NCBI GenBank assembly: GCA_963806185.1 | Contig: CAWDXE010000007.1 | Location: 978,059 to 1,042,058 of the forward strand | DNA from: an uncultured candidate division Zixibacteria bacterium | Lineage (GTDB): Bacteria > Zixibacteria > MSB-5A5 > GN15 > FEB-12 | DNA: 64,000 nucleotides | Direction of reading: 5' to 3' | Shown: positions 1-57,196 of the stretch, one piece after another | Layout of the letters: the number at the start of each line of letters is the position of its first letter | Numbering within the stretch: the stretch's first letter is position 1 | Made by a program: the position numbers and the translations under genes | The notes under the pieces: generated by a model | What the model was told of the DNA's origin: nothing | Databases searched by the model: none | What the model saw: the letters and a program-made list of their open reading frames with translations, nothing else

Positions 1-157
1 CGGTCAGCGCATCCTCCTCCGTTTTGGTCAAGGAGACAAGTTGGGCACTTACGTTGTCAAATGGCATAGCCGATTCCTTCCCTTTCTCGGTTGGATTTCC
101 GCAAACGGCCAGGACAAAAGCAATGGCAGTCAGGGTGGCAGCCTGGCACGGCTTCAT
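1..157 (-). CDS. Exported/lipoprotein-like protein, 3'-truncated by the window edge; candidate immunity protein
   Basis: Read manually: the ATG at 157 overlaps the TGA of the upstream gene (ATGA). Translation MKPCQAATLTAIAFVLAVCGNPTEKG... has a signal-peptide-like segment followed by Cys and stays open to position 1. Confidence 0.6.
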   Translation of the reverse strand, partial: MKPCQAATLTAIAFVLAVCGNPTEKGKESAMPFDNVSAQLVSLTKTEEDALT

Positions 158-1491
158 AGCGGCGGCATATGCGACCACGCCTCGGGATCCCATATTGCCT
201 CCGGACAGGGGCCTGGATTCTTGCAGAAGCCGGCGGCGTTACTCACCCAGACCGTGGCCACAACCATGGCCTCCATGGCCGCGGCCGGGGAATCATAACA
301 GCTTTCGCCGATGCAGTAGTATTTCTCGCCGTATTTCACCGTTCCTTCAAAATTGTTCCACCCCTGGTAGGCCGTCTTGCGTTTCGAGTGATCGCGAAAG
401 ATAAGCTTCTCGCTCGCTCCGTGCGGAGGATCAGGATTTGGGTGGGTAGCCGCCACACCGCGCGACTCGTTGGCTTTGCCTGAGCGGTCGAATTTACCGC
501 TTCCCTTCAGCATGCCGGGATACAGATGCCCGAGCACAAATTTGTCCGGCAGGCCGAGCATTTGACAACTCTTTTGGAAGAGGTCGGCCAGGGCGTTGCA
601 TTCGGCACGTACTCCGCCGAAGATCTTCCAGACAGGATTGGGATACGGTGCGCCCAGAAAGTAGTGGCCGATCTCCTGGCCGGAAATTACTTTGAAGACG
701 GCATCAACATACCCCTGTTCATCGCGGGGAGACTCGGGATTATCCGTGAAATATTTATCCACCCATGTTGTGAGCGCATACAGCCGCTTGACGGTCGGGG
801 CGCTGCCGTACGGCTTGTCGTAGGTCAGCATGATATGGTGAGGGCCGGTGGGTCCGAGGTCAAACTTACGCTTGCCGATGTCGACCTCCCAGGACAACTG
901 GACCTTCCAAGTCGCGATTTCATCCCACAATGGGGCTTCAGCTTCGAGGGTGGCCTCACCCCGGCCGTTTTCAATCTTAAATTCCTGGTCAACGAAAGAC
1001 ACTTTGAGCTGGTCACCCTTGACTCGGACGATGGCCTGCTCGGTGACGTGGTCGGCAGGCAGTGCTTCCACTTCGACAGTGATCTTGAGTTTCTGATGCT
1101 TGGTGTGTGAGATAGGGGAGTTGAGACGAGGGGTCCACTCCGGTTTGGGGAAGCGGTTTCCCGTATCGGTCCAGTCACGTTTGTTGTCGAGGAGCAGGTC
1201 GTGATCGGAGACGAACTTCAGGCCCTTAATGGAGAGGGATTCTATCTTGCGTGGGGCACGCCGGAAGAAACGAAAGATGCCGCCCGTGTGACTTCGGGCG
1301 CGATTGGGAGTGGCAGGAATCCAGACACGCTCGCCAACCGAGAGTTCGTTATGGTCAGGGTGTTTCTTTCGAAAGCTCTCGTTCCGGTCGTGGTAGTAGA
1401 TCACTTTCCAGTCGGCCAGACCGTAGGTTCGGGCCAGGCGTGAGAGCGACTCTCCACGCTCGACAACATGATAGAATCCACCGTTGCTCAT
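154..1491 (-). CDS. LysM-domain protein with a C-terminal transglutaminase/papain-like core; candidate secreted effector
   Basis: N-terminal HVVERGESLSRLARTYGL...LSVGERVWIP is LysM-like. ECNALADLFQKSCQMLGLP resembles the catalytic-Cys helix of transglutaminase-like proteins. Confidence 0.65.
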   Translation of the reverse strand: MSNGGFYHVVERGESLSRLARTYGLADWKVIYYHDRNESFRKKHPDHNELSVGERVWIPATPNRARSHTGGIFRFFRRAPRKIESLSIKGLKFVSDHDLLLDNKRDWTDTGNRFPKPEWTPRLNSPISHTKHQKLKITVEVEALPADHVTEQAIVRVKGDQLKVSFVDQEFKIENGRGEATLEAEAPLWDEIATWKVQLSWEVDIGKRKFDLGPTGPHHIMLTYDKPYGSAPTVKRLYALTTWVDKYFTDNPESPRDEQGYVDAVFKVISGQEIGHYFLGAPYPNPVWKIFGGVRAECNALADLFQKSCQMLGLPDKFVLGHLYPGMLKGSGKFDRSGKANESRGVAATHPNPDPPHGASEKLIFRDHSKRKTAYQGWNNFEGTVKYGEKYYCIGESCYDSPAAAMEAMVVATVWVSNAAGFCKNPGPCPEAIWDPEAWSHMPPL

Positions 1492-2390
1492 GACTTGTCT
1501 TCGCGGCCGACGATCTGGTCAAGACTCGGCCATTCGATCACCACTTCACCGGGCGGGAGGTCCTCTTCCTTCAAGTTGCCGTCGGCGTCGAGCTTTCCCT
1601 TCCGCTCTGAACCATCAGCCAGATGCAGGACATAATCCTCGTTGGCGACGGGGTTGCCGCTTTCATCAAGCACCTGCAGTTGGAGCCAGTCCTTAAACCG
1701 CAGGAGCCCGCTCGCCTGATCGACGCCATATTCGGTGCCGTCGACGCGGACGGTGAAGAAATACTCCGGATGGGCATAACTGCCGCCGTGCTCGGCCAGC
1801 TCATCGTTGGTGGGGATTTCGTCGACGTCCTCGTAATACTCGTACTCCCATTTCAGGTCGAACTTGCCGTCGTTGACCTGAACCGGCAGCTCCACTATCG
1901 GGTCGTGACACCCGTCGGCGTCGAATTCGTACACCACAAGTGTGACTTCCCAGCCGCTCGGCACACCTTTAACTTTACCCGAGAGTCCTACGATATCACC
2001 GCGTGTGGCCCGGTCCGCGCTCCATTTGAGTTCGCTGACTACGACAGGCGGGCGGGCGGGAATGTGGTCGGATTCTCCCTTCACGCCGTTTTTGGACAGC
2101 TCAACTTCAAAATATACGGAGTCGCCGGATTCGATATCATCAGGAATGGGAATGGCACCCAGGAATCGGTTGCCCCGAACCTCACCCTCGATCTTACCCA
2201 GTTTCTTCCCCTTGTCGCTTTTGCCGGTCAATTTTATGGGGGCACCGTGTCCGACAAAGGCAGTCAGCACTTCACAGCGAGCGTCCTGGCCGCCGAAGGC
2301 AACCGAAGAGAGCCAATGGGCGGAGACAAGCGACGGATCGAGCTTGATCTTTTCTTTTTTGTCGGTGCTGACGGTGTGGGTTTCCGACAT
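1488..2390 (-). CDS. Hypothetical protein paralogous to the C-terminal extension of the PAAR protein (Ig-like plus transthyretin-like module)
   Basis: C-terminal DESGNPVANEDYVLHLADGSERKGKLDADG and YAHPEYFFTVRV match segments of 6414..7562. ATGA overlap with the next gene. Confidence 0.7.
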   Translation of the reverse strand: MSETHTVSTDKKEKIKLDPSLVSAHWLSSVAFGGQDARCEVLTAFVGHGAPIKLTGKSDKGKKLGKIEGEVRGNRFLGAIPIPDDIESGDSVYFEVELSKNGVKGESDHIPARPPVVVSELKWSADRATRGDIVGLSGKVKGVPSGWEVTLVVYEFDADGCHDPIVELPVQVNDGKFDLKWEYEYYEDVDEIPTNDELAEHGGSYAHPEYFFTVRVDGTEYGVDQASGLLRFKDWLQLQVLDESGNPVANEDYVLHLADGSERKGKLDADGNLKEEDLPPGEVVIEWPSLDQIVGREDKS

Positions 2391-2401
2391 GACTGCCGCA
2401 A

Positions 2402-2833
2402 CTAATCTATGGGTGTAAAACTCTCTAAGATTTTCTCTACCTGACGACCGATGGTCTTGGCCGTTTTCTTGGAGAAATTGGCCGTGATGGTATAGGCGAT
2501 ACCGCCCGTAATAATGAAGATCAGTTTGCGGATTTCCGCCTGTTGGGGAGCCGGCGTGGTGGCATAGGCGAATTCATAGGCGGTAAGGCCATTTCCCAAT
2601 TCCCGTTCTTCGGATTTCAGTGTCCTGGCATCGGGACGGGACGCGAGCGTCTGGTCAATGTGCGAACGCGCGTATTCGCGAAGGGACTGCTTTCCGGCCT
2701 CGCGATCGAGTGTAATGACGAGGGTATGGTACACGCCTGACTCCTGGGGACCGCTGAAGGTGTACACGGTCTGCTCGTGCCAGTCGGATGGGAGTTTGAG
2801 ATCGAAGCCGGGGTGTCGTCCTGATTTCGCCAT
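2402..2833 (-). CDS. DcrB/DUF1795 (PsbP-like, EagR-type) adaptor/chaperone
   Basis: FDLKLPSDWHEQTVYTF...SLREYA...ITGGIAYTITA...ILESF pattern and PAAR-locus context. The ATG at 2833 was chosen as start. Confidence 0.7.
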   Translation of the reverse strand: MAKSGRHPGFDLKLPSDWHEQTVYTFSGPQESGVYHTLVITLDREAGKQSLREYARSHIDQTLASRPDARTLKSEERELGNGLTAYEFAYATTPAPQQAEIRKLIFIITGGIAYTITANFSKKTAKTIGRQVEKILESFTPID

Positions 2834-2835
2834 GA

Positions 2836-3615
2836 CTATTCGCCTGTTGAAGTCCAATCGCCAAGTTCGCGCACCAACTGGCCGTTTCTCCAGATAAGAT
2901 AATACGTCCTGTTCCGAAGGGAAGTGCCGGTGCTGTCGATTTCGCCCTCGACGCCCTCGACCACGGTCTTCCCGTCGCCGAGATGGGACGAGGGTTCCGT
3001 GGCAATAGCAGAATCAAGAATGGGTACGAGCATCTCGTGGACATGGGTTTGATCGGTGCCAAATGACCAGGTCGCTGTGCCGACGCCCGGCGTGTTGATC
3101 GAGGTAGAGTCGAAGATCACGAAGCGCCAGGTAAGGAGACCATCCTCGGCACAGCGCTGAGCCAATACCACGGGACTGGCAACCGAATCGCTCAAACGGG
3201 CCATAACAACTGATTGGCAACTGATTTCCTCCCATACGTCGCTCGTGTCGCCGGCTGATCTGAGCAGTTGATGACCGACAATCTCGGACGGAGGAATAGC
3301 ATTGAAGTAGAGGATTTTGGTTTCCCAATCGGGCCCGTAAGGAGTGTATGGGTGCACTCTTTGATCGAGGGGCACGGAGACAATCAGCAGCGGCGTTTGA
3401 GCGCCACCGAACGAGATTGCCGTGTCCAACTCCACGAAAGAGTCCTTTCGCTGGGTCTGGGTTACCCAGTTGCGGGCGTCATCGCGTGTGGGTTGGTGGC
3501 TCGTTTGGGCAACTTCACGAGCGCAGCCAATCATCGTCAGAAGGGCCGCTGCGGCAAGGCAGGTCAAGAGCGATATTCTCGGGAAAGTACTCGACAGATT
3601 CATCGTGGGTTCCAT
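2836..3615 (-). CDS. Predicted lipoprotein; candidate immunity protein
   Basis: Hydrophobic leader ending MIG-C (lipobox-like). Starts 1 bp after the stop of the 777-aa gene. Confidence 0.6.
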   Translation of the reverse strand: MEPTMNLSSTFPRISLLTCLAAAALLTMIGCAREVAQTSHQPTRDDARNWVTQTQRKDSFVELDTAISFGGAQTPLLIVSVPLDQRVHPYTPYGPDWETKILYFNAIPPSEIVGHQLLRSAGDTSDVWEEISCQSVVMARLSDSVASPVVLAQRCAEDGLLTWRFVIFDSTSINTPGVGTATWSFGTDQTHVHEMLVPILDSAIATEPSSHLGDGKTVVEGVEGEIDSTGTSLRNRTYYLIWRNGQLVRELGDWTSTGE

Positions 3616-3616
3616 T

Positions 3617-5950
3617 CTATGCGGTCAAATAGCAATACAGCCACTGTTTCGCAATCGGTGGTTGGGGTTTTGGATCGCCGTCCATTATTTCAACCCTGGT
3701 CAGAAGTTTCTGGCTCACCAGTTTGTCTGCGATCGCCTTCACTTGCTGCAACGCCTTGTTTTGTTCCTGCTCCAGAGCCGACAATGCCTGTGCCTTCGCC
3801 GAATCTCCTTTGGCGGCCGACTTCTCATACTGCTCCGCCAGTTTTCCGTAATTGAGCGGCAGGACCTCCAGCGCCAAACCGTCGCCGCCGGCCACTATTG
3901 CTCGCGGCACCACTGAATTCTTGATCCGATAGCGCAGGAGTTGGACATACTTGAGTAGATTTACGCTACAACGCATGGGAGACGCCAGTTTTTTTATATC
4001 GGCGTAGGTGAAATGGGCCGATAGCTGAGGATTCGAGTTGGGATTGCTGGCGCCGGTGAGGTACTTGCGATCGGGCGTAAAGGCGAGTTCGTCGGCCATG
4101 GCGCCCGGCGTGCCTCCGGCAAGGGCGGCCAGTTCGTCATAGATCAGGTCGACCTGGCGTTTCAGTTCGGGGTTGTAACCGGGGGTTGATTCGTCCGCGT
4201 CCTTTCTCCCCTGCCACTCCCACGGCAGGTACTTGCCGCTCACTTGACACATAGTGCGAATGAGATTACCAGCGTGCAGCCTTTTCGAATAAAGAGCGGC
4301 ATTGGCGGCCGAATATTGGGGCAGGGCAAATTGTTTGAGGAATTCCCGGCGGCCAGCCTCGGTAAAGCGAGGTTGCCTGAGGAGGAGGCCAATAAAATCG
4401 GCGGTCCCGAAGGCTGAGAAGACTCGCAGCCACGGGTTGCGCGTGGTGTGACCGGCGGTGGCGTGTGCCCAGACGGTCGCCTGATTAATACCGTTAGCCA
4501 GAAGTCCGCGCATCAATATCCACCCCAGTGATTCGGCGCCGATTTCTTCACCGGGATCCGGCTTGCCGTACGTTTTTTCCGAGAAGCGATCGACGCCTCC
4601 AGTGATCGAACGGCCGCAGTTGCAGGCGTAGAGCGGGATGACCAAATCCGAGGTTACATCGTTCTTGATCATACTTACGAAGTCATCGGCAGAGGTGACG
4701 GTGAGACAGCCGGGGTCACTCCAATTATCCATCTTCAGTTCTGTCTTCTGCCGGATACCGTGAGAGTAGATGGCGAGCATGGATACTTTTACCGGATCGG
4801 GCAGCGCGGGGTCGGTGATGCCTTTGAGTTTAGACTTTAGTGTGGTGAGGCTTGAGCCGATTTTCTTGTAACTGTCGATTTGATAGAAGCCGAACCGGAT
4901 CTTGCTCTTGTCTTCGTCGTAGAAGATCGTCGGCAGAGTGCTGATCATTTCCTCGGCCTGGTTCTGAAATTCCTTATTATTCAGCCCCTTCTTGATTCCA
5001 GCCTCGGCTGCGGCGATCTTGTTGTTGGCAAGGCCAATCTGCTTCTTGGCTTCTTTCAGTTTTTGGCCATTGTCTGTATCCAGATATTTTTTGTAATCAG
5101 GAGAAGTGAGGGGATCGAGGCCGGCCGGTGGCGTCGCGCCGGCTGGAACCGGGTCGTTTCCGTACGTCTTCTGCTTCCAGAGCGCGTCGGCGGCCGATTT
5201 GAAATCGGCCTTTGCCTTCTCCAGTTCTTTCTGGCCCTCAGCCTTCTTCTGCGCATTGTCTGCATTGGCTTCATCAGAAAACGCCGCGCGGTAATCGGCC
5301 ACGAAGGCGACAGCGATTCCTTTGCGTTCATCCAACTGTCGACGGATTGTTGCCTCAACATTGCGGACGACATAGGGCCGGGCGATTTTGGATTCACCGA
5401 AAGTGCGATCCAGAGACGTCGTTGTAAGGGTAGCAGCGAGTTCGAGAATACCTTCGTATTCCGGAAGGGGGATGACAAACTGGGAAGGGGATGATTCACC
5501 GGCACGGGTCAATTCAAAGGTGACCTTGCCGTAGAGCACGTTGACGTCGCTTTCGACCAGAGACGGCGACGAGGTGGGGCGGAATTGGTATCCGCCGGCA
5601 GTCCGCACAACCACGCCGGGAAAGGTTGCCAACCACTGATTCTTCCGTTCATTGAGGTCGGTCTCTTCATTGGTGAGAACGCGATTGATCGGGAAGAAAT
5701 CCAATTCCCAGAGCTGGAGGTAGCAGTCGGCCGAGGTGGAGTCGGAGACGGTATCGGGCGTGTGAAAGGGAACGACGGGGATCTTGCCGGGCAGTTTGTG
5801 AGGTCCGGTCAGCGATACAGAATGCTTGTACGCCTCGACAGGACCCGGCAGAGCATCACCAGTCTTGAGTGCGACGGTGAAAGCGGCTTCCAGTTTTGCC
5901 GGCTGCCTGGCGGCAGATTTCTTTTTCGCTTTCGCTGGTGGCGCGGCCAT
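3617..5950 (-). CDS. 777-aa multidomain hypothetical protein; candidate effector with a clan CD-like His/Cys motif pair
   Basis: Long ORF in the PAAR operon. Motifs MLAIYSHG and IPLYACNCG, a central Lys/Ala-rich coiled-coil-like region, and C-terminal QLSAHFTY. Confidence 0.6.
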   Translation of the reverse strand: MAAPPAKAKKKSAARQPAKLEAAFTVALKTGDALPGPVEAYKHSVSLTGPHKLPGKIPVVPFHTPDTVSDSTSADCYLQLWELDFFPINRVLTNEETDLNERKNQWLATFPGVVVRTAGGYQFRPTSSPSLVESDVNVLYGKVTFELTRAGESSPSQFVIPLPEYEGILELAATLTTTSLDRTFGESKIARPYVVRNVEATIRRQLDERKGIAVAFVADYRAAFSDEANADNAQKKAEGQKELEKAKADFKSAADALWKQKTYGNDPVPAGATPPAGLDPLTSPDYKKYLDTDNGQKLKEAKKQIGLANNKIAAAEAGIKKGLNNKEFQNQAEEMISTLPTIFYDEDKSKIRFGFYQIDSYKKIGSSLTTLKSKLKGITDPALPDPVKVSMLAIYSHGIRQKTELKMDNWSDPGCLTVTSADDFVSMIKNDVTSDLVIPLYACNCGRSITGGVDRFSEKTYGKPDPGEEIGAESLGWILMRGLLANGINQATVWAHATAGHTTRNPWLRVFSAFGTADFIGLLLRQPRFTEAGRREFLKQFALPQYSAANAALYSKRLHAGNLIRTMCQVSGKYLPWEWQGRKDADESTPGYNPELKRQVDLIYDELAALAGGTPGAMADELAFTPDRKYLTGASNPNSNPQLSAHFTYADIKKLASPMRCSVNLLKYVQLLRYRIKNSVVPRAIVAGGDGLALEVLPLNYGKLAEQYEKSAAKGDSAKAQALSALEQEQNKALQQVKAIADKLVSQKLLTRVEIMDGDPKPQPPIAKQWLYCYLTA

Positions 5951-5972
5951 AATTGCGTATGCGACGGTCGCC

Positions 5973-6410
5973 TTACTCCGGTTGGCTATCGAATTCAGCT
6001 TCCTGATCGTCTGCAGTCAATTCATTTCCGGTGGGACCCTGAAAGGCATCCCGCTGATCCTCGAGCGCCGTAAACGGCACGCTGACCTCGACCGGCGTTG
6101 CCTCCGGTGGAATCGCCGGAACGATGTAACTGGCGTCACCGACATGAAGCTGATAGTCGCCAAAGTCGGCGGGTGAGTGCTGAAACTTTCCCTGATCGTC
6201 AGTCTGGTCCTTGATTGACAGGCCGTGCCCTTCAAGCGTGAAGGCCCGTTGGGGCCACGGTTCGCCGCCGGCCTCACTCTGCAAAACGAAGGAAATTGCG
6301 CCAACACCATCGGGGAGAATCGTGAAGCTGTTCGTACGACCGGGAACAAGGCTGATCTTCTTCCCTTCGAAGGCGCTGCCATAGACATATCGGTGGTACG
6401 GGTCGCTCAT
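5973..6410 (-). CDS. Small transthyretin-like/carboxypeptidase-regulatory-like domain protein
   Basis: GEPWPQRAFTLEG...DQTDDQGKF...GDYQLHVG resembles PAAR/VgrG-associated beta-sandwich adaptors. Starts 3 bp after the PAAR gene. Confidence 0.55.
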   Translation of the reverse strand: MSDPYHRYVYGSAFEGKKISLVPGRTNSFTILPDGVGAISFVLQSEAGGEPWPQRAFTLEGHGLSIKDQTDDQGKFQHSPADFGDYQLHVGDASYIVPAIPPEATPVEVSVPFTALEDQRDAFQGPTGNELTADDQEAEFDSQPE

Positions 6411-6413
6411 GAA

Positions 6414-7562
6414 TCACTCCGGCGCGGATTCCGGTTCGGGACGCGGAAAGTTGGGAAAACGCAGCCAGTGGATGGCGGCCGGTACCGGATCGAGGGTCGC
6501 TTTCCCGGACGAATCAAGTTTCCCGTCGCGCACTTCCCCGTTGGAGAGGAAAACCACGTAGGGTTCGTCTTTCAGGGCGTTGCCGTCTTCATCCTTGGCT
6601 TCGATTACTATCTTGTCAGTAAACGTAATCAGGGCCGAGCGCGCCTCAAGGGCTCCGATGCGGACCTTGAAGAAGTACTGCGGCAAGCTGTACGCCGAGC
6701 GGCCGTCGGAGAGGGTCGGAATCGAAGCGAAGGAAGGGTATTCGAACGCCCATTCTCTTTCGATGCCGTCGCTCTTGACGGTAACATCGGGAATGACGGT
6801 GACCATCTGATCCGGCTGTTTGATATCGCGCAGCCAGACTTCGAGCTGAGCAGGTGTGCCGTCCTCGACACCGACCGTGCTCACGGTCACCTTCACCTTG
6901 TCGCCGGCTTTGGCCTTGTCGGTCGACCACCGGGCTTGCGTGATCGCCTTAAAAGCAACATCGTAATCACCTTCATCGGCCGCATTACGCTGGATGACGC
7001 CGGTGGACAGCTCACCGGACGACTTGCCGTCGGGATGAGTAATTTCATGGACGACGCCCGTTATCGGGAAACCGCCCTTGTCGACTATTTGAACGTCGAG
7101 GAAGTGACCCTCAACGTCGTCTTCTTCGCTATCGCTGGAGTCTGACTCGCTTTCGGAACTTGCGTCGGTGTGACCACCTTCTTCGGCGGCGGCAGTTTCG
7201 CGATCGCCTTCTTTAGCACCGCCGCTTCCCCCTCCGCCGCCGGCTCCGCCCCCTCCCCCGCCGCTATCGCCAATCAACACGGTAGGGCATCCGCCGACGA
7301 TTGAATCCGGTGGGCCGGCGCAAGTGGCCATGTCGCCCATTCTGGCAGCAGGCATTCCGCCGATAAGCACGGTTGCACTACCTTTCATAATGGGACCGCC
7401 GACGTGTGGTGGCGGCGGGACGCCGGGGTTGAGCATCGGACAGACGTGCATGTCACCCATGCGGGCGGCCGGCTGACCACCGATGAGAACCATCGGAAAG
7501 CCGACGACGATTGCTCCGCCGTGAGCGGTACTGTCACCAAGTCGAGCTGCTGGTTGGCCCAT
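6414..7562 (-). CDS. PAAR-domain protein with a Gly/acidic linker and C-terminal extension
   Basis: Three PAAR motifs (QPAARLGD, QPAARMGD, MPAARMGD) with His/Cys metal ligands. Confidence 0.93.
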   Translation of the reverse strand: MGQPAARLGDSTAHGGAIVVGFPMVLIGGQPAARMGDMHVCPMLNPGVPPPPHVGGPIMKGSATVLIGGMPAARMGDMATCAGPPDSIVGGCPTVLIGDSGGGGGGAGGGGGSGGAKEGDRETAAAEEGGHTDASSESESDSSDSEEDDVEGHFLDVQIVDKGGFPITGVVHEITHPDGKSSGELSTGVIQRNAADEGDYDVAFKAITQARWSTDKAKAGDKVKVTVSTVGVEDGTPAQLEVWLRDIKQPDQMVTVIPDVTVKSDGIEREWAFEYPSFASIPTLSDGRSAYSLPQYFFKVRIGALEARSALITFTDKIVIEAKDEDGNALKDEPYVVFLSNGEVRDGKLDSSGKATLDPVPAAIHWLRFPNFPRPEPESAPE

Positions 7563-7668: not shown

Positions 7669-8988
7669 TCAAAAGCTGGCCTGAATGCCAATAGTAGGCA
7701 CCCATTCCGCACGCATGCCGCCGCTATTGGTAGGCAGCAGAACATCGGCCATAAACAGGACGCTCGACGAGGCGGCGTACTTCAGGCCGAACGAGGCGTT
7801 GTTAATGTTATCACTCTTGTAGTTCGGGATATTCGTCGGCGACACTGTTCGCGAGACAACGGGGTTGCCGGTTGGAGAACTAATCGTCGAAATGGAGACC
7901 GCTCCCGGGAACTGGTAGGCCTTGATTTCTTCGCCAACTTCGAGATTGCCAAGCCACTCTGCCACGAGGGTGAATTTCTGACCCAGGCGGTAATCGTAGC
8001 CAAGGCCGATGTTGACTTGATCACGCTGGAACGCGCTGGAGTGAATATTATAGGTCAGATTCATGTGGGGAATGTATCCCTCCTCGGAACCCGAGACCAG
8101 CACACCGAACTTGTAACTGGCGTCGCCGGTGCCGAGGAAGTTCTTCTCGTCGCCGGTGGCCAGGCGGGCTTCGAACAAGCCGCTCACAACCGTCTTTTCA
8201 GATTTGGCCAGCATATACTTTGCGCGAAGGGCGATATCACCGATGCCGGTAGCGGATTCATCGATGGCCGGCGGGGTCAGGGTCAGAATCGGATCACCCA
8301 GAGCTGTCGTATCATAGAAGTGGTTGGCATAACCGAACATCTCGAGCGTGTGGCTGTTGATACGAGAGGTAGGGTTGGCCTTCATGTTGATCGAGATGAA
8401 CGGGACAGCCAAGCCGACGTCGAGCTTATCAGACACGCCGTACGTGGCATACATGGCGGCGACATTGGCGGTGATATCCATCTTCATTTGCAGTTCAATG
8501 GTGTCGAATTCGTTGGGGTCGTCGCCCATGCCGTTGCCCAGTTCATCCTCGTGAAGGAAGGTGAATTTGATATCCTGCGTCTTGATACCGCGGATGCGTG
8601 TCAGCGGCATGTGAGTGAAATTCATGCCAACGTTCAGGACTTTCTTACCGAGGGTTTGCGCTCGTTCGGTGAAGATTGGTCCGGCACTGGTAGTGGCCGC
8701 GACCGGGACGCCGGAGGAGAAGTCGAAAGTCAGGCCGGCGCCGGTGGAACTGAGCGGGAACGAGGAGAGATTGCCGGAGATGTAGCTGGTGAGGGCGTCG
8801 CGAATCTGTTTGTTGACGGCTGAATTATCCGTCTTGAAGTGGTTGCCGTGCGAGCCGGGCGACAAATGAAGGTCGAGAACGGTCTTGAAAATGCCGTCCA
8901 ATTGATCGCGTAGGTCGGCGGCGGCGGTGATGCCAGTCAAGGCAACACCGATGAACCCAACGTAAAGAAGTAAGCGCAGTTTTGTCAC
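7669..8988 (-). CDS. Probable outer-membrane beta-barrel protein (MetA-pathway phenol-degradation/transporter-like)
   Basis: Signal peptide, GIGDIALRAKY and LATGD...FLGTG motifs, C-terminal Phe (IQASF). Confidence 0.7.
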   Translation of the reverse strand: MTKLRLLLYVGFIGVALTGITAAADLRDQLDGIFKTVLDLHLSPGSHGNHFKTDNSAVNKQIRDALTSYISGNLSSFPLSSTGAGLTFDFSSGVPVAATTSAGPIFTERAQTLGKKVLNVGMNFTHMPLTRIRGIKTQDIKFTFLHEDELGNGMGDDPNEFDTIELQMKMDITANVAAMYATYGVSDKLDVGLAVPFISINMKANPTSRINSHTLEMFGYANHFYDTTALGDPILTLTPPAIDESATGIGDIALRAKYMLAKSEKTVVSGLFEARLATGDEKNFLGTGDASYKFGVLVSGSEEGYIPHMNLTYNIHSSAFQRDQVNIGLGYDYRLGQKFTLVAEWLGNLEVGEEIKAYQFPGAVSISTISSPTGNPVVSRTVSPTNIPNYKSDNINNASFGLKYAASSSVLFMADVLLPTNSGGMRAEWVPTIGIQASF

Positions 8989-9013: not shown

Positions 9014-11185
9014 TTACTTGATTGCAGTTACTTTGCTGATCAGCCAATTGTCACCGCTTCGCACGAGAACGAACTGAAATTTGACCGGCGAAGAGCGTGA
9101 ACCTTTGGTTTTCGGTCTGGCCGTACCGGCCAACTGAGCTGTGGCTTCGGCTCCCGAGATTTCGATGTCTGAGACTTTTCCCGACAATTCCATCCCGCCC
9201 GTAGTTGCAAACGAGTTGTTGTACGCGTCCCGGTCTTTGGATGAGATCGATGGCCAGACCGCCTTCAGCTGGTCGACGCTGGCATTTTGCAGGGCCTGTT
9301 GGAAGCGGGAGATGGTCTGCTTGATGACCTTTTCGTTATCGATTGAAGAGATGGCGACGTTGGACGGAGGGGCGGCCGGTGGCTGAAAGACGAAGATAAG
9401 GACGCACTCTTTGCCGCCGATCACTTTGACAGTGGAGTCCTGCTTCTGCTTGCCGTCGAGGCTGGTAACGGCAATCTGGTATGTCCCGGGCTCGACGGTG
9501 GCTGAATATGGTGTTTTTCCCTCGGCGGAAGTTGGTCCGGTAATCTGGACGTGGGCTCCGCTTGGACCGCTGGTGATCTTCAGCAATCCGCCGGCGACGG
9601 CAGGAACCATGAAGGAACGGCTGGTGGTGCGACCCTTCACGACAGTAAGCGATTCATTGAGCCACTGGCGCTGGTCGGGGCCATGCTGAATCCGGATTGC
9701 ATAGGTCCCTACCGGGAGTGACTCCTGCCAGGTGGTACCGTTATCGCGGCGGAGCTGATTATTGATGTAGATGTCACTCGGTTGATCAACAGTGAGGCTA
9801 AGCAGACCCTGTTCGACTACCGGCGAAGCTGATATTGCCGTATCGGGCGATTCGAGGACGATCGAACGAGTCTCGGAATACGGCCCCGGCTGATTGTCGG
9901 CATTCATCCCTACGACGCGCCAATAATATGTAGCTCCGGATTTGAGGTCAGAGATAGTGAGACGCCCCTGGCGAAGGCCAGAATATTTCTTGGAGTCTAC
10001 AAACGCACTTGATGAACTGATCTCGAGCGAATAGGTGCCCTGGTCGCCGATATCGCCGCGCCACGCAAACTCCACCGGCGCGGCCGAGCGGAAACGGCTC
10101 CCGTCTGAAGGTGAGACAAGCACGGGGGTCGAGGGAGGCGCCGCGGATTCAGGCGTTGCTTTCTGAACCGTTGTGGCGGTGGTTTCGGTGGGTGGCACAG
10201 TCTGCTGAGACGAGCCTGGTCCCTGCGGTGATTGTGCGGCGGAGGTTGGCTTGTGACCAAGGACCAGTGGATACAGGAGGTATCCGGCGACAGCCACGAC
10301 AATCACCCCTGCCACGGCGATGCCGATTTTCGAATACCCTCCGCCGAGATATACGGAATCAACCTCTTTCAGAGCGGCGGCCAGTTCGTCGACCGACGGA
10401 TATCTCTTCTTCGGATCGGGATGAGTCGCTCGCTTGAGGACGTTGCGCAAGCCGGGAGCGAGTTTTTTGCCGGCGCTGTCCTTCCATTCATCCACCAACG
10501 GGGCGGCAGGATTGCGATACGGGAAGCTGTTGGTGGCGAGGTTGAAGAGCGTGATGCCGAGTTCGTAGACGTCACTCAGATACGGGTTGTAATCCAGTCG
10601 CCCACCCTGCCGTTCGGGCGCGGCAAAATTCACTGACAGCGCCGCATAGCCAGTGCGTGTGCGCGAGGCGTCGGTTCCCTCTTTGGCGATGCCGAAGTCG
10701 ATCAGATAGACGTGACCGTTCTTATCAATCAGGATATTGCCGGGTTTGAGATCGCGGTGGGCCACGCCTTGTTTGTGGGCATAGGCGACGGCATCGGCAA
10801 CGTGACGCGCGACTTTCAGGAGGAGTTCGGATTCGAGCGGTCCCTTGTCATGCAGGATTTGGTCGGCGTTCCGGCCGTCGATGTACTGCATCACCAGGGC
10901 GTTTTCATCCGGAAAATAGTCCATCACCCGGGAGATGTTGGGGTGATCGAGGCGACAGAGAATCTGGGCTTCGCGATCGAAGCGTTCGCGGAAGGCCACT
11001 TCCTTGAAGAACTTAAGGACGAGCCTCTGCTGGGGGAGGTTGCTGTTGAAGCCTTCGTAGACCTCACCGAAACCACCGCCGCCGATATACGAGCGGACCT
11101 TGTATTTCCCGCCGATAGTCCAGCCGACTACACCAAGCGGATCAGGGCCGTGTTGTTCGAGATCGTCGCCGAAAGTGCTAATCAT
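9014..11185 (-). CDS. Transmembrane Ser/Thr protein kinase with extracytoplasmic FN3-like, PEGA and NTF2-like domains
   Basis: GGGGFGEVY, HRDLKPGN, DFG and APE kinase motifs, one TM helix, YYWRV (FN3-like), ITSGPSGAHV (PEGA-like). Confidence 0.92.
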   Translation of the reverse strand: MISTFGDDLEQHGPDPLGVVGWTIGGKYKVRSYIGGGGFGEVYEGFNSNLPQQRLVLKFFKEVAFRERFDREAQILCRLDHPNISRVMDYFPDENALVMQYIDGRNADQILHDKGPLESELLLKVARHVADAVAYAHKQGVAHRDLKPGNILIDKNGHVYLIDFGIAKEGTDASRTRTGYAALSVNFAAPERQGGRLDYNPYLSDVYELGITLFNLATNSFPYRNPAAPLVDEWKDSAGKKLAPGLRNVLKRATHPDPKKRYPSVDELAAALKEVDSVYLGGGYSKIGIAVAGVIVVAVAGYLLYPLVLGHKPTSAAQSPQGPGSSQQTVPPTETTATTVQKATPESAAPPSTPVLVSPSDGSRFRSAAPVEFAWRGDIGDQGTYSLEISSSSAFVDSKKYSGLRQGRLTISDLKSGATYYWRVVGMNADNQPGPYSETRSIVLESPDTAISASPVVEQGLLSLTVDQPSDIYINNQLRRDNGTTWQESLPVGTYAIRIQHGPDQRQWLNESLTVVKGRTTSRSFMVPAVAGGLLKITSGPSGAHVQITGPTSAEGKTPYSATVEPGTYQIAVTSLDGKQKQDSTVKVIGGKECVLIFVFQPPAAPPSNVAISSIDNEKVIKQTISRFQQALQNASVDQLKAVWPSISSKDRDAYNNSFATTGGMELSGKVSDIEISGAEATAQLAGTARPKTKGSRSSPVKFQFVLVRSGDNWLISKVTAIK

Positions 11186-49594: not shown

Positions 49595-50032
49595 TCAGAA
49601 AAGTGGCATGTGCCCATCTGATTCCTCCTCTGCCTGGGACGCAAGTTTTTGATTGTCGGGATGGGCATCGCTATGGCATTTGATACAAAGCAACTGCAGA
49701 TTGTCGAGAGAATGATCGGGCCCAGTCGAGATAGGCACGATGTGATGAACATGCCCGCGGCATTCAACTTTCTGGCCCCAGTTCTCCAGATGCTCGAGCA
49801 AGTCAATTTCAGCAACCCCTAGCACTCGTCCACACTTCTCACATTTACTAGCAGCCCTAATGATTATGAAGGCGCGCCGAACTTGCCAGTCAGGAGGGTA
49901 CGTGGGATAGAATCTGTATTTTTGATCTGTGTCAGAATGCCATTTCTTGGTTTCTTTGGGGAGGACGACGCGCTTGCGGTAGTTTGACCAAACTGCGCTG
50001 ATGATAAGCCAGACGATGAAACCGGCGATCAT
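49595..50032 (-). CDS. HNH endonuclease with an N-terminal hydrophobic segment; 5' end probably cut by the junction
   Basis: YPPDW, CEKCG and HVHHIVPIS.G.DHSLDNLQLLCIKCH motifs. Confidence 0.8.
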   Translation of the reverse strand: MIAGFIVWLIISAVWSNYRKRVVLPKETKKWHSDTDQKYRFYPTYPPDWQVRRAFIIIRAASKCEKCGRVLGVAEIDLLEHLENWGQKVECRGHVHHIVPISTGPDHSLDNLQLLCIKCHSDAHPDNQKLASQAEEESDGHMPLF

Positions 50033-50265
50033 CGCAAGCTGATCAGCATCCTCACCATCATGATCGAGCGGCGCCAGAAGTGGGACGCCAAACGCTACTC
50101 GGTCAGCTGATCGAGCGTACTCCGCGCTCGGTCCTGGACCGAGCGCATGCAAAGCCAAAAGACCGGTGAGCGGACGGGGTCAAGGCCGTCAGCCGCCGAA
50201 GGCTGGGGCGCGCCGCGCCAGCCTTGAGGCCGGCCGATCACTGGTCTACGTAAAACACAGTTGCT
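50033..50265 (+). mobile_element. 3' end of an IS110-family element (transposase C-terminus 50033-50110 plus non-coding right end)
   Basis: Manual translation RKLISILTIMIERRQKWDAKRYSVS* resembles IS110 transposase C-termini. The end reads CACAGTTGCT. Confidence 0.65.
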
Positions 50266-50581
50266 CCCCGGTGACCGGCCTTTCTTGCCACCGTCATCCG
50301 CGAGAATGGCTTCCCGCGAACTTGACTCAGGGTCGGGGTGCCAGGACCACACGCCTTCGCCGTCCGCATCGTGCGCGCCCGTCAAGCGCGCGCCTTGCGT
50401 CCACCGCATCTCACCGCAACGTTCGTAGACGATCGCGAGCCGCCCCTCCTTTCGGGTGAGACGGGCAAAGCTAAAGCGCTGATTTGCGCCGCATGTGAAG
50501 CGATTTATTTTTGATTCTGCGGCTTGACACCCAATTCGGAAAATCAGAAGTGATTTGCCCGTCGGGTTGTTTTGTCGCAGG
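50264..50581. repeat. Bradyrhizobium-type intergenic repeat element (partial)
   Basis: CCCCGGTGACCGG..TTCTTGCCACCGTC, CAGGACCACACG.CTTCGCCGTCCGC, CGTCCACCGCATC and TGATTTGCCCGTCGGG blocks, recognised from memory of Bradyrhizobium repeats. Confidence 0.55.
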
Positions 50582-50712
50582 CGCGACGCAGGATTTCGCT
50601 TGCGCGCGAGGCGAAGCAGTTCACGCTTCGCAAGTTGGCTGGCTGGCGCCGACGCGATAGGATTGCGAAAGAAACGGCGGAGCACGCTGAAGCTAATCCG
50701 CCCCACGAGCTG

Positions 50713-51225
50713 TTAGCGGCGAATCCAGATCTTCTCGCCGGTCACCGGGTTGATCCCGTAACTTGGCCGATCGTCATCGTCGATGTCGTCGGGGTCCGGA
50801 TATTGCGGAGGAGCGCTGCCGCGTGTCGCAACCACGCGCGGGTATCGGACCTTCGCCAGCTTTGTGCCCTTCGCTTTCAGGCTCACGCGAAAGTGCCAAT
50901 CATCGCCGTAGTCGAACAGAAACACCATGGTGTGGCCGATCTCCGCAAACGCCTGTGAAATCCTGGTTTTCTTAACGCCGCCGACGCCCGGTGCGGCATC
51001 GCCCATATCGGCGAACAGTTCGTATCGGGGAAGCGTGCTCATCAGGGTGGTGGGCTTGAGCCCGCTGTAAAAGCCAAAAGCGTGATCGAATTCGAAACCA
51101 AATGCCGTCACGATTGCCTCGGCAAGCGTGTAGAGCGATTTTGACGGCTCGATTTCGATATCCCGGTAAATTGACATTTTACCGTCAAGCCCGGCGCGCA
51201 GGATAAAGGTGTCATTCGACGTCAT
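50713..51225 (-). CDS. Plasmid pRiA4b ORF-3 / IS1096 passenger TnpR-family protein
   Basis: YRDIEI...SL..L...I..AFGF..DH, FLFDYGDDWHF and PPQYP motifs. Confidence 0.85.
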   Translation of the reverse strand: MTSNDTFILRAGLDGKMSIYRDIEIEPSKSLYTLAEAIVTAFGFEFDHAFGFYSGLKPTTLMSTLPRYELFADMGDAAPGVGGVKKTRISQAFAEIGHTMVFLFDYGDDWHFRVSLKAKGTKLAKVRYPRVVATRGSAPPQYPDPDDIDDDDRPSYGINPVTGEKIWIRR

Positions 51226-51294
51226 GTCGGACCTGCCAGAATCGCTGCCGAAATCGTATCATTACTTCGGCAGCTGCGAGGGCCGCAGCAGCTC

Positions 51295-51385
51295 GTACGG
51301 TGGGTTAGCGAAGCGTGACCCACCGTTTCCGGAGCGATATCCCGGTGAGAGATGGGGGACTACGCTCCGCTACACGCCCTGCGGG
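51295..51385. repeat. REP doublet; similar doublet at 51726-51812 and a hairpin at 52246-52278
   Basis: GGTGGGTTAGCGAAGCGTGACCCACC palindrome with a degenerate inverted partner. Confidence 0.6.
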
Positions 51386-51439
51386 CCGGCGCGGGGCGCG
51401 GCAGTTCGTTCGCTGAACCCCAGCCTGCCACCCAGCTCT

Positions 51440-51658
51440 TCACTTCATCAGAGCGGCACGGCGGCGCAGCCCGCTGGAAGCGTCGAGCCGCCGGCGGTCC
51501 TCGCCGATATCCGGCCCGGTAATATCGACCACGGAATCGAGCAGCGCCACCGCTTCCGCGAGCACCGCCGCGACATCCTGACCGCGCTCGTCGGCCATTT
51601 CGCGCAGGCGCGCATCGGTGTCGGCGTCGATATCCAGCGTGCGGCGGATGATGTTCAT
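51440..51658 (-). CDS. Small ribbon-helix-helix-like protein
   Basis: RRTLDIDADTDARLREMADERG pattern. Confidence 0.5.
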   Translation of the reverse strand: MNIIRRTLDIDADTDARLREMADERGQDVAAVLAEAVALLDSVVDITGPDIGEDRRRLDASSGLRRRAALMK

Positions 51659-51834
51659 GGCGGAAGAATAATGGCGGAGGGTGATCTGTTCGAGATCCTG
51701 ACTGGCCGCATGAGAGGCACAGGTCCGCAGGGTGGGTTAGATTAGCGAAGCGTAACCCGCCGTTTTCCGGTCGGCAAAGTTGGCGGACTGCGTTACGTTC
51801 ATCTACCCTACCGTCCGCAGAGGGAGCAAATACA

Positions 51835-52235
51835 TGAGCACGATCGAACATCCCCGCACCGAGGGGCTTTCGCAAAATCCGGCCTACTCGCATGTGGTCG
51901 TCGCCTCGGGAAAGCGCACGATCTACACGGCGGGGCAGGTGTCGATCGACGAGCGCGGCGCGCTGGTCGGGCCCGGCGACCTCGCCGCGCAAACGGCGCA
52001 GGTGATGCGCAATGTCGGCCTGGCGCTCGCCGCCGCGGGCGCGGGCTACGCCGACATCGTCAAGATCACCACCTATGTCGTGAACTACAAGCCCGAGTAT
52101 CGAACCGTCGTCGGCAAGGCGCGGGCCCCCTTCTTCGCGGGCGGAACGCCGCGGGCCAGCACCCTGGTCGGAGTCGCGGCGCTGGCGATGCCTGAGTGGC
52201 TGGTCGAGATCGAGGCGGTCGCGGTCATTGACTAA
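51835..52235 (+). CDS. RidA/YjgF-family protein
   Basis: YSHVV, AGQV, DIVKITTYV and STLVGV..LA.P..LVEIEA motifs. The ATG at ~51834 follows GGGAG. Confidence 0.88.
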
Positions 52236-52340
52236 CGATCGCGACGTGCGATGGGCCTCGCTAAGGCTCACCCATCCGCGGGGCTGGCGAATCGGTTGAA
52301 GAAGGACCGGGGTGGTGTTTGTTCGGCCAGCGAGGATCCT

Positions 52341-53006
52341 GAAACACTAATTTTCCTGGACTTATTTTGAAGCCAAGTCTTTATTATCAATGGAATAATA
52401 GTATTCATTTTGATTTGGCCAAGGGACTGTATCAATTGAAAGATGATGACAGACGAACTAAATCCTGATTATTTTAATACAGTCTATGATCAAGCCATCT
52501 CACTTTTTAATGATCTTTTCTCAGATGAAGATACAATTCTTTTGGTTACGAATGTTTATCAGCACAGGGATTATATAAGAAGAAGTAAAAGGAAAATCAA
52601 GGTCTATAGTCATTACATAAAAAGCAAAAATGTACGATTTCATTTAAAGCAAGAAACACTCCCCTATATGTTTGATGACGAAGAAGAAGCAGGGGATTAT
52701 TGTACTTCCCAATTTTCATTGGAATGTCACAAACGGGATATTTCGTATCCATTGCTCATAAAAGCAATTTGTAATCAGGATTTTCCTTCGTTAAAACCAA
52801 GATTAAGTAATCCATATTATAGATACGATCCAGATATATTTTTCATTAATGTCACAAAAAATGTGATCCTTTACATTTACGATGATAGGGGATGCGAGGT
52901 CATCGCAAGTGATATTGAAACAATACGCCCTATATATGAGAAGTATGTTGATTGGATTGATGAATATTGTCGTGAAGAGATAGACCAACGTTTTGGTGTA
53001 AATTAG
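52341..53006 (+). CDS. DUF3885-like protein, 5'-partial, frameshift near 52445
   Basis: NFPGLILKPSLYYQW...IHFDL upstream joins ELNPDYF...HIYDDRGC-like C-terminus (YIYDDRGC). Confidence 0.72.
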
Positions 53007-53018
53007 GATATAAAAAAG

Positions 53019-53153
53019 CAGTTCTTTATTCAATTTGGGTACGATTATTATATGTACATTGGGGCGAGTGAAGACTGTGCGAAAGCTAAAGAGGTTGTTA
53101 AGGAAACTGGATTATTTATTGAGGACTTCAAATCTCCTTATCTATCGAATTAA
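53019..53153 (+). pseudogene. Start-less 44-codon gene remnant
   Basis: QFFIQFGYDYYMYIGASEDCAKAKEVVKETGLFIEDFKSPYLSN* looks like a protein C-terminus; the only in-frame Met is internal and has no RBS. Confidence 0.5.
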
Positions 53154-53172
53154 TAAGTAGTGGAGGGTATTA

Positions 53173-53607
53173 ATGGAGAAAACGCAAGTGATGGTGTATT
53201 TTAGTATGTTTGCAGATGAATTTCCATTAGATGCTGTAACAAAACAATTGGGTATCGAACCAACGGAAAGTTATAAAAAAGGTGACATCATAAAGAAAAT
53301 ATCTCCTACAGAAAATCATGTAAGAAGTTATACTCGTTGGAAGCTAAGTACAGGTTATCAAGAATCATTGGATGTAGGCGGGCAAATGGATATGATTATC
53401 GATCAAATTGGCGACAAATCAGCGGTTATTAATGACCTAAAAAGGCAATTTGGATTAGATTGCAGGTTTACCATTGTCATTATAATGAACAATGGCTATA
53501 CACCTGGCTTATATTTAGATCAATCCATAATCGCATTTGCCAATAGCATCAATGCTGATTTTGATATTGATTTGTACGCAAACTCTTATGATGAAGTAGC
53601 CGAATAA
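53173..53607 (+). CDS. DUF4279-family protein
   Basis: VYF...VT..LGIEPT...KGD...W.LST...DFDIDLY pattern; GGAGG RBS. Confidence 0.8.
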   Translation: MEKTQVMVYFSMFADEFPLDAVTKQLGIEPTESYKKGDIIKKISPTENHVRSYTRWKLSTGYQESLDVGGQMDMIIDQIGDKSAVINDLKRQFGLDCRFTIVIIMNNGYTPGLYLDQSIIAFANSINADFDIDLYANSYDEVAE

Positions 53608-53636
53608 GTGAGGAAAGGACAAATTTAGGTAATCTT

Positions 53637-54210
53637 ATGGAAATATCATTAATTAGACATGGAAAATCGAAGCATATAGAAAACAATATAGTAACTTGTA
53701 AAGAATTCGTTAAATGGGTAGAAAAGTATGACAATAGTGGGGTTTTTGAAGAAAAGGATTATCCGTCTGAAACGCTGAAAAAAATAGCAACAGCAAGCAT
53801 CGTTATCACAAGTGATTTGACAAGATCTGTTGAGTCAGCAAATCTAATCATTCAAAACAGGAATACAAGAGTGGTTACGGATGCATTATTCCGAGAAACA
53901 GAATTACCTGTTCCTTCGAGGAATTTGAAGTTCAAAATGAGTGCTAATAGTTGGGCAGTGATCTTACGATGTCTATGGTTTTGCGGTTATGCAAGACAAA
54001 ATGAGTCTTTGGCGAAAGCGAAACAGCGGGCTAAAAAGGCATCCGAACGTATTAGTTAAGTATGCAGAGGAGCATGAGTCGGTTGTTTTGGTTGGTCATG
54101 GATTTTTTAATAGGTTAATTGCTGTAGAACTAAAGAAAATGGGCTGGAAAGGTAAAAGAAAGGCAACTGCTAAACACTGGCATTGTACGACCTATTCGTT
54201 ATTTAGCTAA
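53637..54210 (+). CDS. Histidine phosphatase family protein; frameshift near 54050
   Basis: LIRHG, SDL.R..ESA and FRE in one frame; VLVGHGFFN in the next. Confidence 0.82.
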
Positions 54211-54313
54211 CATGGAAAGAATATAAGCATATTGGTTTTAAAAATAGTGATACTTTGGGTTTTATGATTTATGTGAATGCGTAATTCAAGATGGGGGAAA
54301 TAAAGTTGAGAAA

Positions 54314-54779
54314 ATGATTAAGTTTTTGTTCTTTTCACTATTAGTATTGCTTTTATTAAGTGGATGTAATTCAAATGAAAAATACCAATAACGATATTTT
54401 TCAATTCATAGATTGTTTGTAGGTGATAATAGTGCAGTAGGAAACATTATGAATCATCTACCAGGAGCGGAGCAATTAAACGGTTTTGAACTTAAAACCA
54501 ATGAAGAACCGTATGGAATCATTTTAAATTATGACTGGATAGAATCAGAGCAAGAATATAAGGATACAGTGGCATACAATGTAACATTTTATTTACTTTA
54601 TAAAAAATGTTGATTGGATAACATTAATTCAATATTGGTGAATATACAATTTCAAGAATTCTACATGAGTGGTATGGAAAAGAATTAAGTGGAACTCAAA
54701 ACGAAGATGAACTAAGAGACTTATACAAGAATATTTAGAAGACGAAAACAAAGTTAATCAGTTATTAAATGAATCATAA
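54314..54779 (+). pseudogene. DUF4825-like lipoprotein disrupted by several frameshifts (possibly sequencing error)
   Basis: LLSGC lipobox, FVGDNSAVGNI...LP and FELKT.EEPYG..LNY motifs spread across frames. Confidence 0.65.
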
Positions 54780-54883
54780 GTGGGTGCTAGAATAGAGAAA
54801 AGAGATTCAAGAAAAAAGAGTACAACAATTTTGCTTCTTTTCTCTTGTTTTTCTTCTCTCCACTTCTTTCTCGTGTCTTTCTC

Positions 54884-55868
54884 TCAACGTTCAATGTTAA
54901 AAGGGAATACAATGCTTCCAAGAAAGATTGGTTGCTTACCATTGATATCATAGTCTCGGAGACTTGCTCTTATAATTTGGTTATTTTCATAGGTATTAAA
55001 GTAATATTCACATGTGTTTGTATTGATAAAAGCAATATATTTTGTATAATCAATCGGTTCCTCTGTTCGTTAGGACGATACCTTTAGGAATAAATACACT
55101 ATTCATAATATGAAAGCAGGTCATAATAGCGTCAGAGCGGTTTTCGGGAACCTCCACATGTGTTTTTAGAAATGCTGTGCGAACGAAACGCTCAGGGGAT
55201 GTGAAGCCTCCAGGGAGTTGTATGGTTCCTGTACCCTGGCCGAAAGGAGTTAATGATACATTTCCCCATTTCACTTCCTTTTGTTGAGTTGTGGAAACAT
55301 CCATATAATTTCTCAGATTGGTCATATGCCAGTTAAAATCAGGACTATTTGCCATAACTCCTATAGGGTTATTAATAATCTCAAGACCGTTTTTCGTTTG
55401 TTCAATCACAACACATTTGCCATTTCTATCGGTTGCCATCCAATGTAACGGAGCAGCTTTTTGTGTAACAGGATCCGCTATACCTACAATACTGATGTTT
55501 TCTAATAAAGCCTTTAAATCATCCACGGAGCCGCAACGTCCCAAGATATAATGGAGAAAATCTAAAGAAGCAATCTGTTCTTTATCCTCTATTGGTAAAT
55601 CATAATTTGCATAACCCTCAAAATATAAGACTGCCGCGGCAAATCCTTGTTCATTTACACCATCGAAAAAACCTAACATACCATCTGTTTCTTGACCAAT
55701 ACTGATAAAGCTATAGTGATTAATATTTTTTTTCATTGTTATAAGGCTATACCATTCATAATTTCTCGGTATTACATAAAGTCCAGGTTCAATCGGATAG
55801 GAAAAATCCATCGTTCTTCCAAAGAAGTTTTCCCCTTGGTTTGAGTGTAATGTAATAGCGGTACACAT
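54884..55868 (-). CDS. Choloylglycine hydrolase / penicillin V acylase (Ntn hydrolase); frameshift near 55052
   Basis: N-terminal MCT, GRTMDF, DGVNEQG, NSP and LPG.FTSPERFVR. The shifted frame continues DYTKY... to a TGA at 54884. Confidence 0.9.
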
Positions 55869-56315
55869 ACCGTAAAACCTCCAATACTATAATTGTCATC
55901 TTCATACTTTATGTTTTGAAGGTAAATAAGATGCTTTCCACTCAAACACTACTCTTACTATTTCAGAATTTCTTTCAATCTATCATTTTCCTGCTAAAAT
56001 TATCAAAATACGAAACGCAAGATACCTCGTTTATTTTTCGAAAATACAACTTAGGTCCTAGTCGATAGTTAGGCTCTAGTTGGTTAAACTTTTACATTTC
56101 ATTTTGTATGATTAACTTAAGATTTTAACTAAAACTTGTGCATGTTCCCTGTGTAGGAAAGATTAATGCAAGGATTGAATCTAATTTTTGCTCAGAAGTT
56201 AAATATATTTTGAAAAATTTAAGAATTTCTTAAGGAAAGGATTAACCTCTTCTTAAGTTTTTCAAAGTATATTGATATTTGAATAGTTTCTTTGAGCGTT
56301 TGAAAAGGAGAATGG

Positions 56316-57145: not shown

Positions 57146-57196
57146 GGCAACGAAGGAACATTTTTTTAGAGAAGAAACAGCATCAGATGAAAGGAC

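Follow-up and report, generated by a model that had tools for sequence, protein, structure and literature searches.

The closest described systems to the locus presented here, a run of eight genes at one end of a 64,000-nucleotide stretch from an uncultured Zixibacteria bacterium, are the type VI secretion systems (T6SS). In T6SS-i the anchor is TssJLM and the genes follow a tssJKLM-tagF synteny, and in T6SS-iii the membrane hub TssN is near-ubiquitous. Extracellular contractile injection systems (eCIS) have a gp19-type tube and possess neither ClpV nor TssK, and the DO-GTPase/GAP1 systems combine a DO-GTPase and a GAP1 with an FNIII or GASH component. The available part of one study reports T6SS-iii in Bacteroidota only, with none in more than 20,000 other genomes and always with some of TssNQOPR; that part also leaves open how the two membrane complexes arose, listing three scenarios, none of them tested (PMC10781749). 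The restriction is repeated in the accessible part of a 2026 review, which describes the T6SS-iii of Bacteroidales as being without TssA (PMC13584744). Our analysis gives a probability of about 0.8 that the eight genes form the cargo-loading head of one contiguous T6SS cluster with a Bacteroidota-type tail, and that they likely arm the spike with two exchangeable toxins, the gene after each toxin being predicted to encode a periplasmic immunity protein. On this reading the locus is the polymorphic cargo head of an apparently undescribed T6SS variant, T6SS-iii-like and with no TssN found. A literature search, with subscription papers and supplements outside its reach, found no published description of a T6SS or contractile injection system in Zixibacteria or Zixiibacteriota.

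The eight genes are all on the minus strand, packed at positions 1-7562 of the window, by which we mean the whole stretch analysed (G000:C7:978059-1042058). Positions below are those of the window unless G000:C7 is given:

6414..7562, minus strand: PAAR-ext, 382 aa; PAAR spike tip (PAAR_motif E 3.8e-24), Gly linker, TTR-like repeat, beta domain and second TTR-like repeat; conserved scaffold
5973..6410, minus strand: small TTR-like relay protein, 145 aa; matches the TTR-like repeats in PAAR-ext and X300 (hhalign 93-95%); likely adaptor for the 777-aa cargo
3617..5950, minus strand: slot A cargo, 777 aa; effector predicted to be a caspase-like (clan CD) cysteine protease
2836..3615, minus strand: lipoprotein, 259 aa; hydrophobic 11-33, MIG-C31; likely immunity partner of the 777-aa cargo
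2402..2833, minus strand: DcrB/DUF1795-type chaperone, 143 aa; DcrB E 1.6e-6, over cut-off; conserved scaffold
1488..2390, minus strand: X300, 300 aa; paralogue of the PAAR extension that lacks PAAR itself; conserved scaffold and likely a second adaptor
154..1491, minus strand: slot B cargo, 445 aa; N-terminus LysM-like, followed by a beta domain and a predicted transglutaminase/papain-like C-terminal domain
1..157, continuing to G000:C7:977526, minus strand: exported protein, 229 aa, of which only the 5' end is in the window; likely immunity partner of the slot B cargo

The preliminary description of this DNA had reported eight co-oriented, tightly packed genes, and the coordinates re-read from the sequence bear this out. 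Leftward from the gene at 6414 the intergenic gaps are 3, 22, 1, 2 and 11 bp, followed by two ATGA overlaps, the second of them between the 445-aa and 229-aa genes. The most likely start codons are the ATG at 2833 for the DcrB gene and the ATG at 157 for the eighth gene. Promoter and terminator scans gave signal at chance level. The gene identities proposed earlier stand for PAAR, DcrB and the PAAR-extension paralogue and are weaker for the last two genes: Pfam names only PAAR, DcrB and a faint LysM (E 0.08) among the eight, the term enzyme is motif-based, and the lipobox of the last gene is non-canonical. The suggested Zixibacteria-like lineage is supported, with 26 of the 56 records that hold a close sheath homologue labelled Zixibacteria (20 Ignavibacteria, 8 'bacterium' and 2 other, these being mixed submitter labels) and with named proteins for the most part from Zixibacteria.

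It had also been stated that no injection machinery was in view. This holds inside the window only, as a complete tail, baseplate and ClpV cluster adjoins on the same contig and strand (G000:C7:962199-977331, minus strand). The cluster starts 194 bp past the eighth gene, 0.7 kb left of window base 1, and lies outside the window:

G000:C7:974758-977331, minus strand: clpV in two genes
G000:C7:966028-974737, minus strand: tssB, tssC, tssD, vgrG, tssE, tssF, tssG and tssK
G000:C7:962199-965957, minus strand: U316, G744 and S172 (316, 744 and 172 aa), unnamed membrane or exported genes, presumed anchor genes

The source genome thus has vgrG, tssB, tssC and tssD beside the locus. TssC (PF17541, E 2.4e-73) and TssD (PF17642, E 5.2e-21) are both matched over cut-off; the further matches are Phage_base_V (E 6e-25), gp25 (E 6e-13), TssG (E 5e-16), a weak TssF (E 1e-3) and TIGR03345 (E 2e-113 and 1.5e-88). 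It was previously proposed that the eight genes form an auxiliary cargo island, serving an injection machine encoded elsewhere. The 194-bp gap between the eighth gene and clpV makes two transcripts possible, and detached arrangements do exist, since genomes of family f5 carry the scaffold away from the core (L110, L136) and X300-plus-cargo pairs also occur alone. Nevertheless, we regard an island as extremely improbable. Here the core lies right next to the eight genes and shares their strand, most relatives show this linkage too, and a second copy was not found; a genome-wide search for paralogues of the locus proteins found none except Clp ATPases. Because the core is adjacent, the island reading is a window-edge effect in this genome, where the locus heads the sole T6SS locus found. 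The division of clpV is natural, as 62 distinct stand-alone N-halves are found in relatives versus 6 fused proteins. In this assembly the first clpV half also has a frame break near codon 18, which is likely an assembly (indel) error, given that frame changes affect 10 of the 112 genes comparable with relatives across this assembly. A literature search on split ClpV, of the same reach as above, returned no relevant paper.

By profile comparison, the tail is of the Bacteroidota type (T6SS-iii). The TssC profile built from relatives matches three Bacteroidota TssC at E 1e-84 to 1e-80 versus 5e-5 and 5e-3 for two T6SS-i TssC, and the TssK profile matches three Bacteroidota TssK at E 1e-41 to 1e-31 versus about 1e-6 for T6SS-i. 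The system thus resembles T6SS-iii, as described in the available part of PMC10781749, in its TssC, TssD and TssK, in possessing tssB, tssE, tssF, tssG, vgrG and clpV, and in that no TssA was found. It differs in its phylum, in the mostly split ClpV, in a fixed two-slot cargo scaffold, in the U316-G744-S172 genes after tssK and in the absence of TssN, which is over cut-off in none of the 285 genomes of our phylum set (those listed are all of one class), with a positive control in 3/3 Bacteroidota plasmids. TssR was not found in this genome, but its control was silent too. When the U316, G744, S172 and X300 profiles were compared with one set of TssR, TssO, TssP and TssQ, no convincing match emerged, the best being TssO at E 0.005 among 26 targets. 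In this genome (82% complete) the ImpA_N model finds no TssA, with a positive E. coli control, and the family models for TssJ, TssL (DotU) and TssM (IcmF_C) find nothing, again with positive controls. The gp19-type tube model PF06841 also finds nothing in the genome, but its control was silent.

The sheath gene is present in 145 of the 285 phylum genomes. DotU is over cut-off in 23 (families f7, f19 and f20), merely 2 of which hold this sheath, hinting that the phylum has two alternative, nearly mutually exclusive T6SS types. A TssC tree of 26 rows, built with a quick method and with long branches that meet, does not settle the order of events. Two remote U316 homologues (P0031, P0048) are labelled Eisenbacteria, which suggests that the system extends beyond this phylum. 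Two wetland sequencing runs with small shares yielded only fragments of relatives.

The predicted membrane anchor of the system is of neither described type. U316, G744 and S172 probably fix the machine in the envelope, a role that TssNQOPR or TssJLM have elsewhere. The membrane GTPase G744 is found in 145 of the 285 genomes, 143 of them shared with the 145 sheath genomes, and in most loci it follows tssK and U316. U316 is a helical protein with a C-terminal transmembrane (TM) segment and a weak TssL fold signal; Foldseek gave no match for it and the Atlas no usable match. G744 has intact G1, G3 and G4 motifs and scores best, near the cut-off, to DO-GTPase2, and some of its relatives match IcmF-related_N over the G4 stretch (E 0.002-0.04). 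The order of tssK, a helical protein with a C-terminal TM segment and a large P-loop membrane protein is like that of T6SS-i, as are the weak TssL fold and IcmF-N signals. Unlike T6SS-i, the TssJ, DotU, IcmF_C and ImpA_N models are silent in this genome and the sheath is of the iii type, and unlike T6SS-i TssM, G744 has 744 aa with its GTPase motifs intact. Whether U316 and G744 are remote relatives of TssL and TssM is an even call. The G744 fold search was filled by GTPases and barely probed its periplasmic part, the comparison of its family with PDB sequences gave nothing significant, and a genome scan with G744 alone found nothing. With hhalign, two-sequence alignments of TssL, TssM, TssJ and TssN and single TssA, TssP and TssR sequences gave probabilities of at most 1.3%, from targets too shallow to exclude homology.

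A very unlikely explanation is that of a contractile injection system which is released or stays in the cytoplasm (eCIS or T6SS-iv-like), with the GTPase trio as a DO-GTPase/GAP1 conflict module next to it instead of an anchor. The locus has points of similarity to the ternary DO-GTPase/GAP1-N2 systems (PMC7159879): a DO-GTPase2-like domain, a TM segment and, in families f5 and f16, a GAP1-N2-like gene (weak, below cut-off) after the GTPase (L030:11205-12020, L027:8026-8835, L150:6213-7049). Moreover, G744 lies away from the core in three f16/f17 genomes, and TssA, TssJ, TssL, TssM and TssN were not found. In contrast to those conflict systems, a single GTPase is tied here to a T6SS, with scores near or below cut-off, and in contrast to eCIS, ClpV and TssK are present, as are TssB, TssC and TssD, all of the T6SS type. 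The association of G744 with the sheath and, in most loci, its place after tssK and U316 also speak against a mere neighbour. Even the relocated GTPase in two f17 genomes (L148:7874-10506, L149:6465-10334) stands beside a 172-aa-type gene (convergent), and in one of them beside PAAR-ext. The main text on the DO-GTPase/GAP1 systems makes no mention of T6SS, IcmF, TagF or TssM (PMC7159879). In its position the GAP1-N2-like gene corresponds to TagF after tssM in T6SS-i; tblastn found no such gene in our own genome.

For the cargo region we compared a chosen subset of loci, namely 20 stretches centred on the sheath gene and 40 centred on X300, selected for the length of their contigs, and 56 loci with a close sheath homologue. 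Most of them share the order PAAR-ext, slot A, DcrB, X300, slot B, clpV. X300 is found in 138 of the 285 phylum genomes, 135 of which have the sheath gene, and the median identity to this genome is 44% for PAAR-ext (37 relatives), 37% for DcrB (57 relatives) and 49% for X300. Counting distinct slots and co-oriented genes of at least 120 aa, with empty slots possibly counted twice, slot A holds two genes in 35 cases, one in 3 and none in 4, and slot B holds two in 25, three in 1, one in 27 and none in 5. The first and single genes form 35 families and the last genes 21. A hydrophobic, signal-like N-terminus is found in 2/61 first genes, 39/61 last genes and 0/30 single genes, and first and last gene families pair in 11/12, 9/9, 6/6, 5/5 and 4/4 cases; these statistics are descriptive and not tests, as kin are non-independent. 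Pfam matches 16 of the 70 slot proteins scanned (174 collected) at E 1e-4, and recognisable cargo in relatives includes Amidase_2, VanY, Zn phospholipase C, PAD, metallophosphoesterase and LysM, peptidoglycan-binding or OmpA domains. The slot genes are very probably secreted effector-immunity pairs, as predicted from this pattern. The two adaptor-cargo-partner modules of the preliminary description are supported by the conserved scaffold with variable slots and by partner and adaptor synteny in unrelated metagenome contigs, and its uncharacterised effector families are supported as well.

The same machine and scaffold might instead deliver surface, predation or host-directed enzymes, with the lipoproteins as accessories and not immunity proteins. 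We find this unlikely, yet more credible than the other alternatives. The 30 single-gene slots without a partner would fit it, as would an orphan homologue of the 777-aa protein (L145), the PAD domain and the many unannotated cargo proteins among relatives. Near-uniform retention, in 14/14 genomes of family f2 and 21/21 of f5, is unusual for a dispensable weapon. The family-specific pairing with signal-bearing last genes speaks against it, however, as do the peptidoglycan hydrolase and phospholipase domains in the slots, and we favour effector-immunity pairs. Two of the slot families deserve a remark of their own. The slot B cargo at L036:3550-6183 has a protein-arginine deiminase domain (Pfam PAD E 3e-43), which is unusual in a T6SS locus. 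The commonest slot A family (L003:9403-12933 and 11 related genes) comprises proteins of 900-1340 aa with an N-terminal OmpA-like stretch, and pairs in 11/12 cases with a 400-aa lipoprotein family that has a weak beta-propeller match.

How might the cargo be attached to the spike? The internal repeats of PAAR-ext at residues 152-208 and 315-373 flank its beta domain (hhalign 82%), and X300 residues 117-296 match PAAR-ext 206-378 (hhalign 100%), which are its last two domains, behind an N-terminal domain of X300's own. The 145-aa protein is one such repeat. We provisionally call the repeats TTR-like, a name for which a relative gives a sub-threshold prealbumin-fold match (Pfam prealbumin-like SpaA, E 4e-4, below cut-off). 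Against PDB sequences, X300 gave only a short match to a biofilm surface protein repeat (E 2.7e-5). According to the available parts of PMC7043769 and PMC10433429, Tle1, PldA and PldB bind to TTR-like domains of VgrG, and specificity follows these domains when they are exchanged. The locus is like the VgrG-Tle1 loading of enteroaggregative E. coli and the VgrG4b/5-PldA/B loading in that TTR-like domains stand beside cargo genes, and unlike them in that the repeats are on PAAR, a PAAR-less paralogue and a free relay protein. By this analogy, there is about as much reason to accept as to doubt that the TTR-like domains are hooks for cargo loading. PAAR would cap VgrG, the TTR-like repeats of PAAR-ext would hold the relay and X300, and the TTR-like domains of these two would hold the 777-aa and 445-aa cargo, respectively. 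A donor-peptide motif test gave a weak result and missed the cargo of this window. The DcrB protein, whose relatives reach E 1.3e-11, may act as a cytoplasmic chaperone. Its presence in the cargo region recalls the Eag/DUF1795 chaperones, but the PAAR here is without a TM segment for Eag to shield; by hydropathy none was found in PAAR-ext or in the 777-aa and 445-aa cargo.

The 777-aa protein is found in none of the other 284 phylum genomes. Its six homologues elsewhere share 27-38% identity with it, and one of them has the label Planctomycetes; the gene has thus probably been acquired by swapping. Clan CD proteases share a dyad pattern of strand-His-Gly followed by strand-Ala-Cys. In the 777-aa family His397-Gly and Ala-Cys443 are kept in 7/7 aligned homologues, and Atlas leads, at lead level only, are Peptidase_C80 (0.89) and DUF4347 (0.87). 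This makes a clan CD cysteine protease the reasonably likely prediction. The family is similar in its dyad to Peptidase_C80, DUF4347 and caspase-like proteins, and differs from them in having no Pfam or PDB match, an extra conserved WxHxxxxHxxRN motif and its own N-terminal domain. The module recurs in parts elsewhere: in L147 a lipoprotein homologous to the 259-aa one (33%, E 1.6e-29) comes directly after the 777-aa homologue, and in L146 a protein ending in a homologue of the relay (36%, E 2.7e-12) directly precedes it. No lipoprotein homologue was seen in L145 or L146, and in L145 the 777-aa homologue stands alone. An N-terminal domain common to the 777-aa cargo and a family of 460-481 aa, found after TTR-like genes in six relatives, seemed convincing on visual inspection but scored only 6-8% (E 0.004-0.006) and was not retained beyond a lead.

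The 445-aa protein has three homologues (42-51% identity) with an invariant ECNALA motif in a helix, and one homologue matches Transglut_core at E 0.052. The Cys is invariant in the family, and at the position expected for the triad His there is His in 1/4 and Asn in 3/4. Comparison of the family with PDB sequences gave nothing significant. A wall-targeted Cys enzyme is thus a possible assignment, at slightly short of even odds. The 229-aa protein has a hydrophobic N-terminus with Cys19, no Pfam match and no homologue among the slot proteins.

Taken across the phylum, we tentatively propose that half of Zixibacteria carry a fifth T6SS subtype, with a Bacteroidota-type tail, a GTPase-based TssL/TssM-like anchor, recycling by a two-chain ClpV, and a fixed series of TTR-like hooks, made up of the PAAR extension, the free relay and the PAAR-less X300, that takes dozens of swapped-in toxin families. 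It would be an intermediate, implying a TssLM-like anchor in the ancestor of T6SS-iii that was later replaced by TssNQOPR in Bacteroidota. That about half of a separate phylum combines a iii-type tail with a different anchor bears directly on the origin of the two T6SS membrane complexes. The fixed addresses between PAAR-ext and DcrB and between X300 and clpV expose about 35 candidate effector families, most of them without annotation, together with their partners, and X300, as a PAAR-less adaptor, may represent an undescribed loading route.

Other parts of the window add minor observations. From 52400 to 64000, up to the contig end, the GC content falls from about 56% to 31-37% and the genes resemble, by eye, Bacillota proteins, and 50000-52300 resembles a third source of higher GC, also by eye; the contig end is possibly chimeric, in a noisy assembly. 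Upstream of the eight genes and on the same strand lie a beta-barrel-like protein (7669-8988) and a Ser/Thr kinase with TM and PEGA domains (9014-11185). In many relatives a related kinase gene stands next to the PAAR gene, in one orientation or the other.

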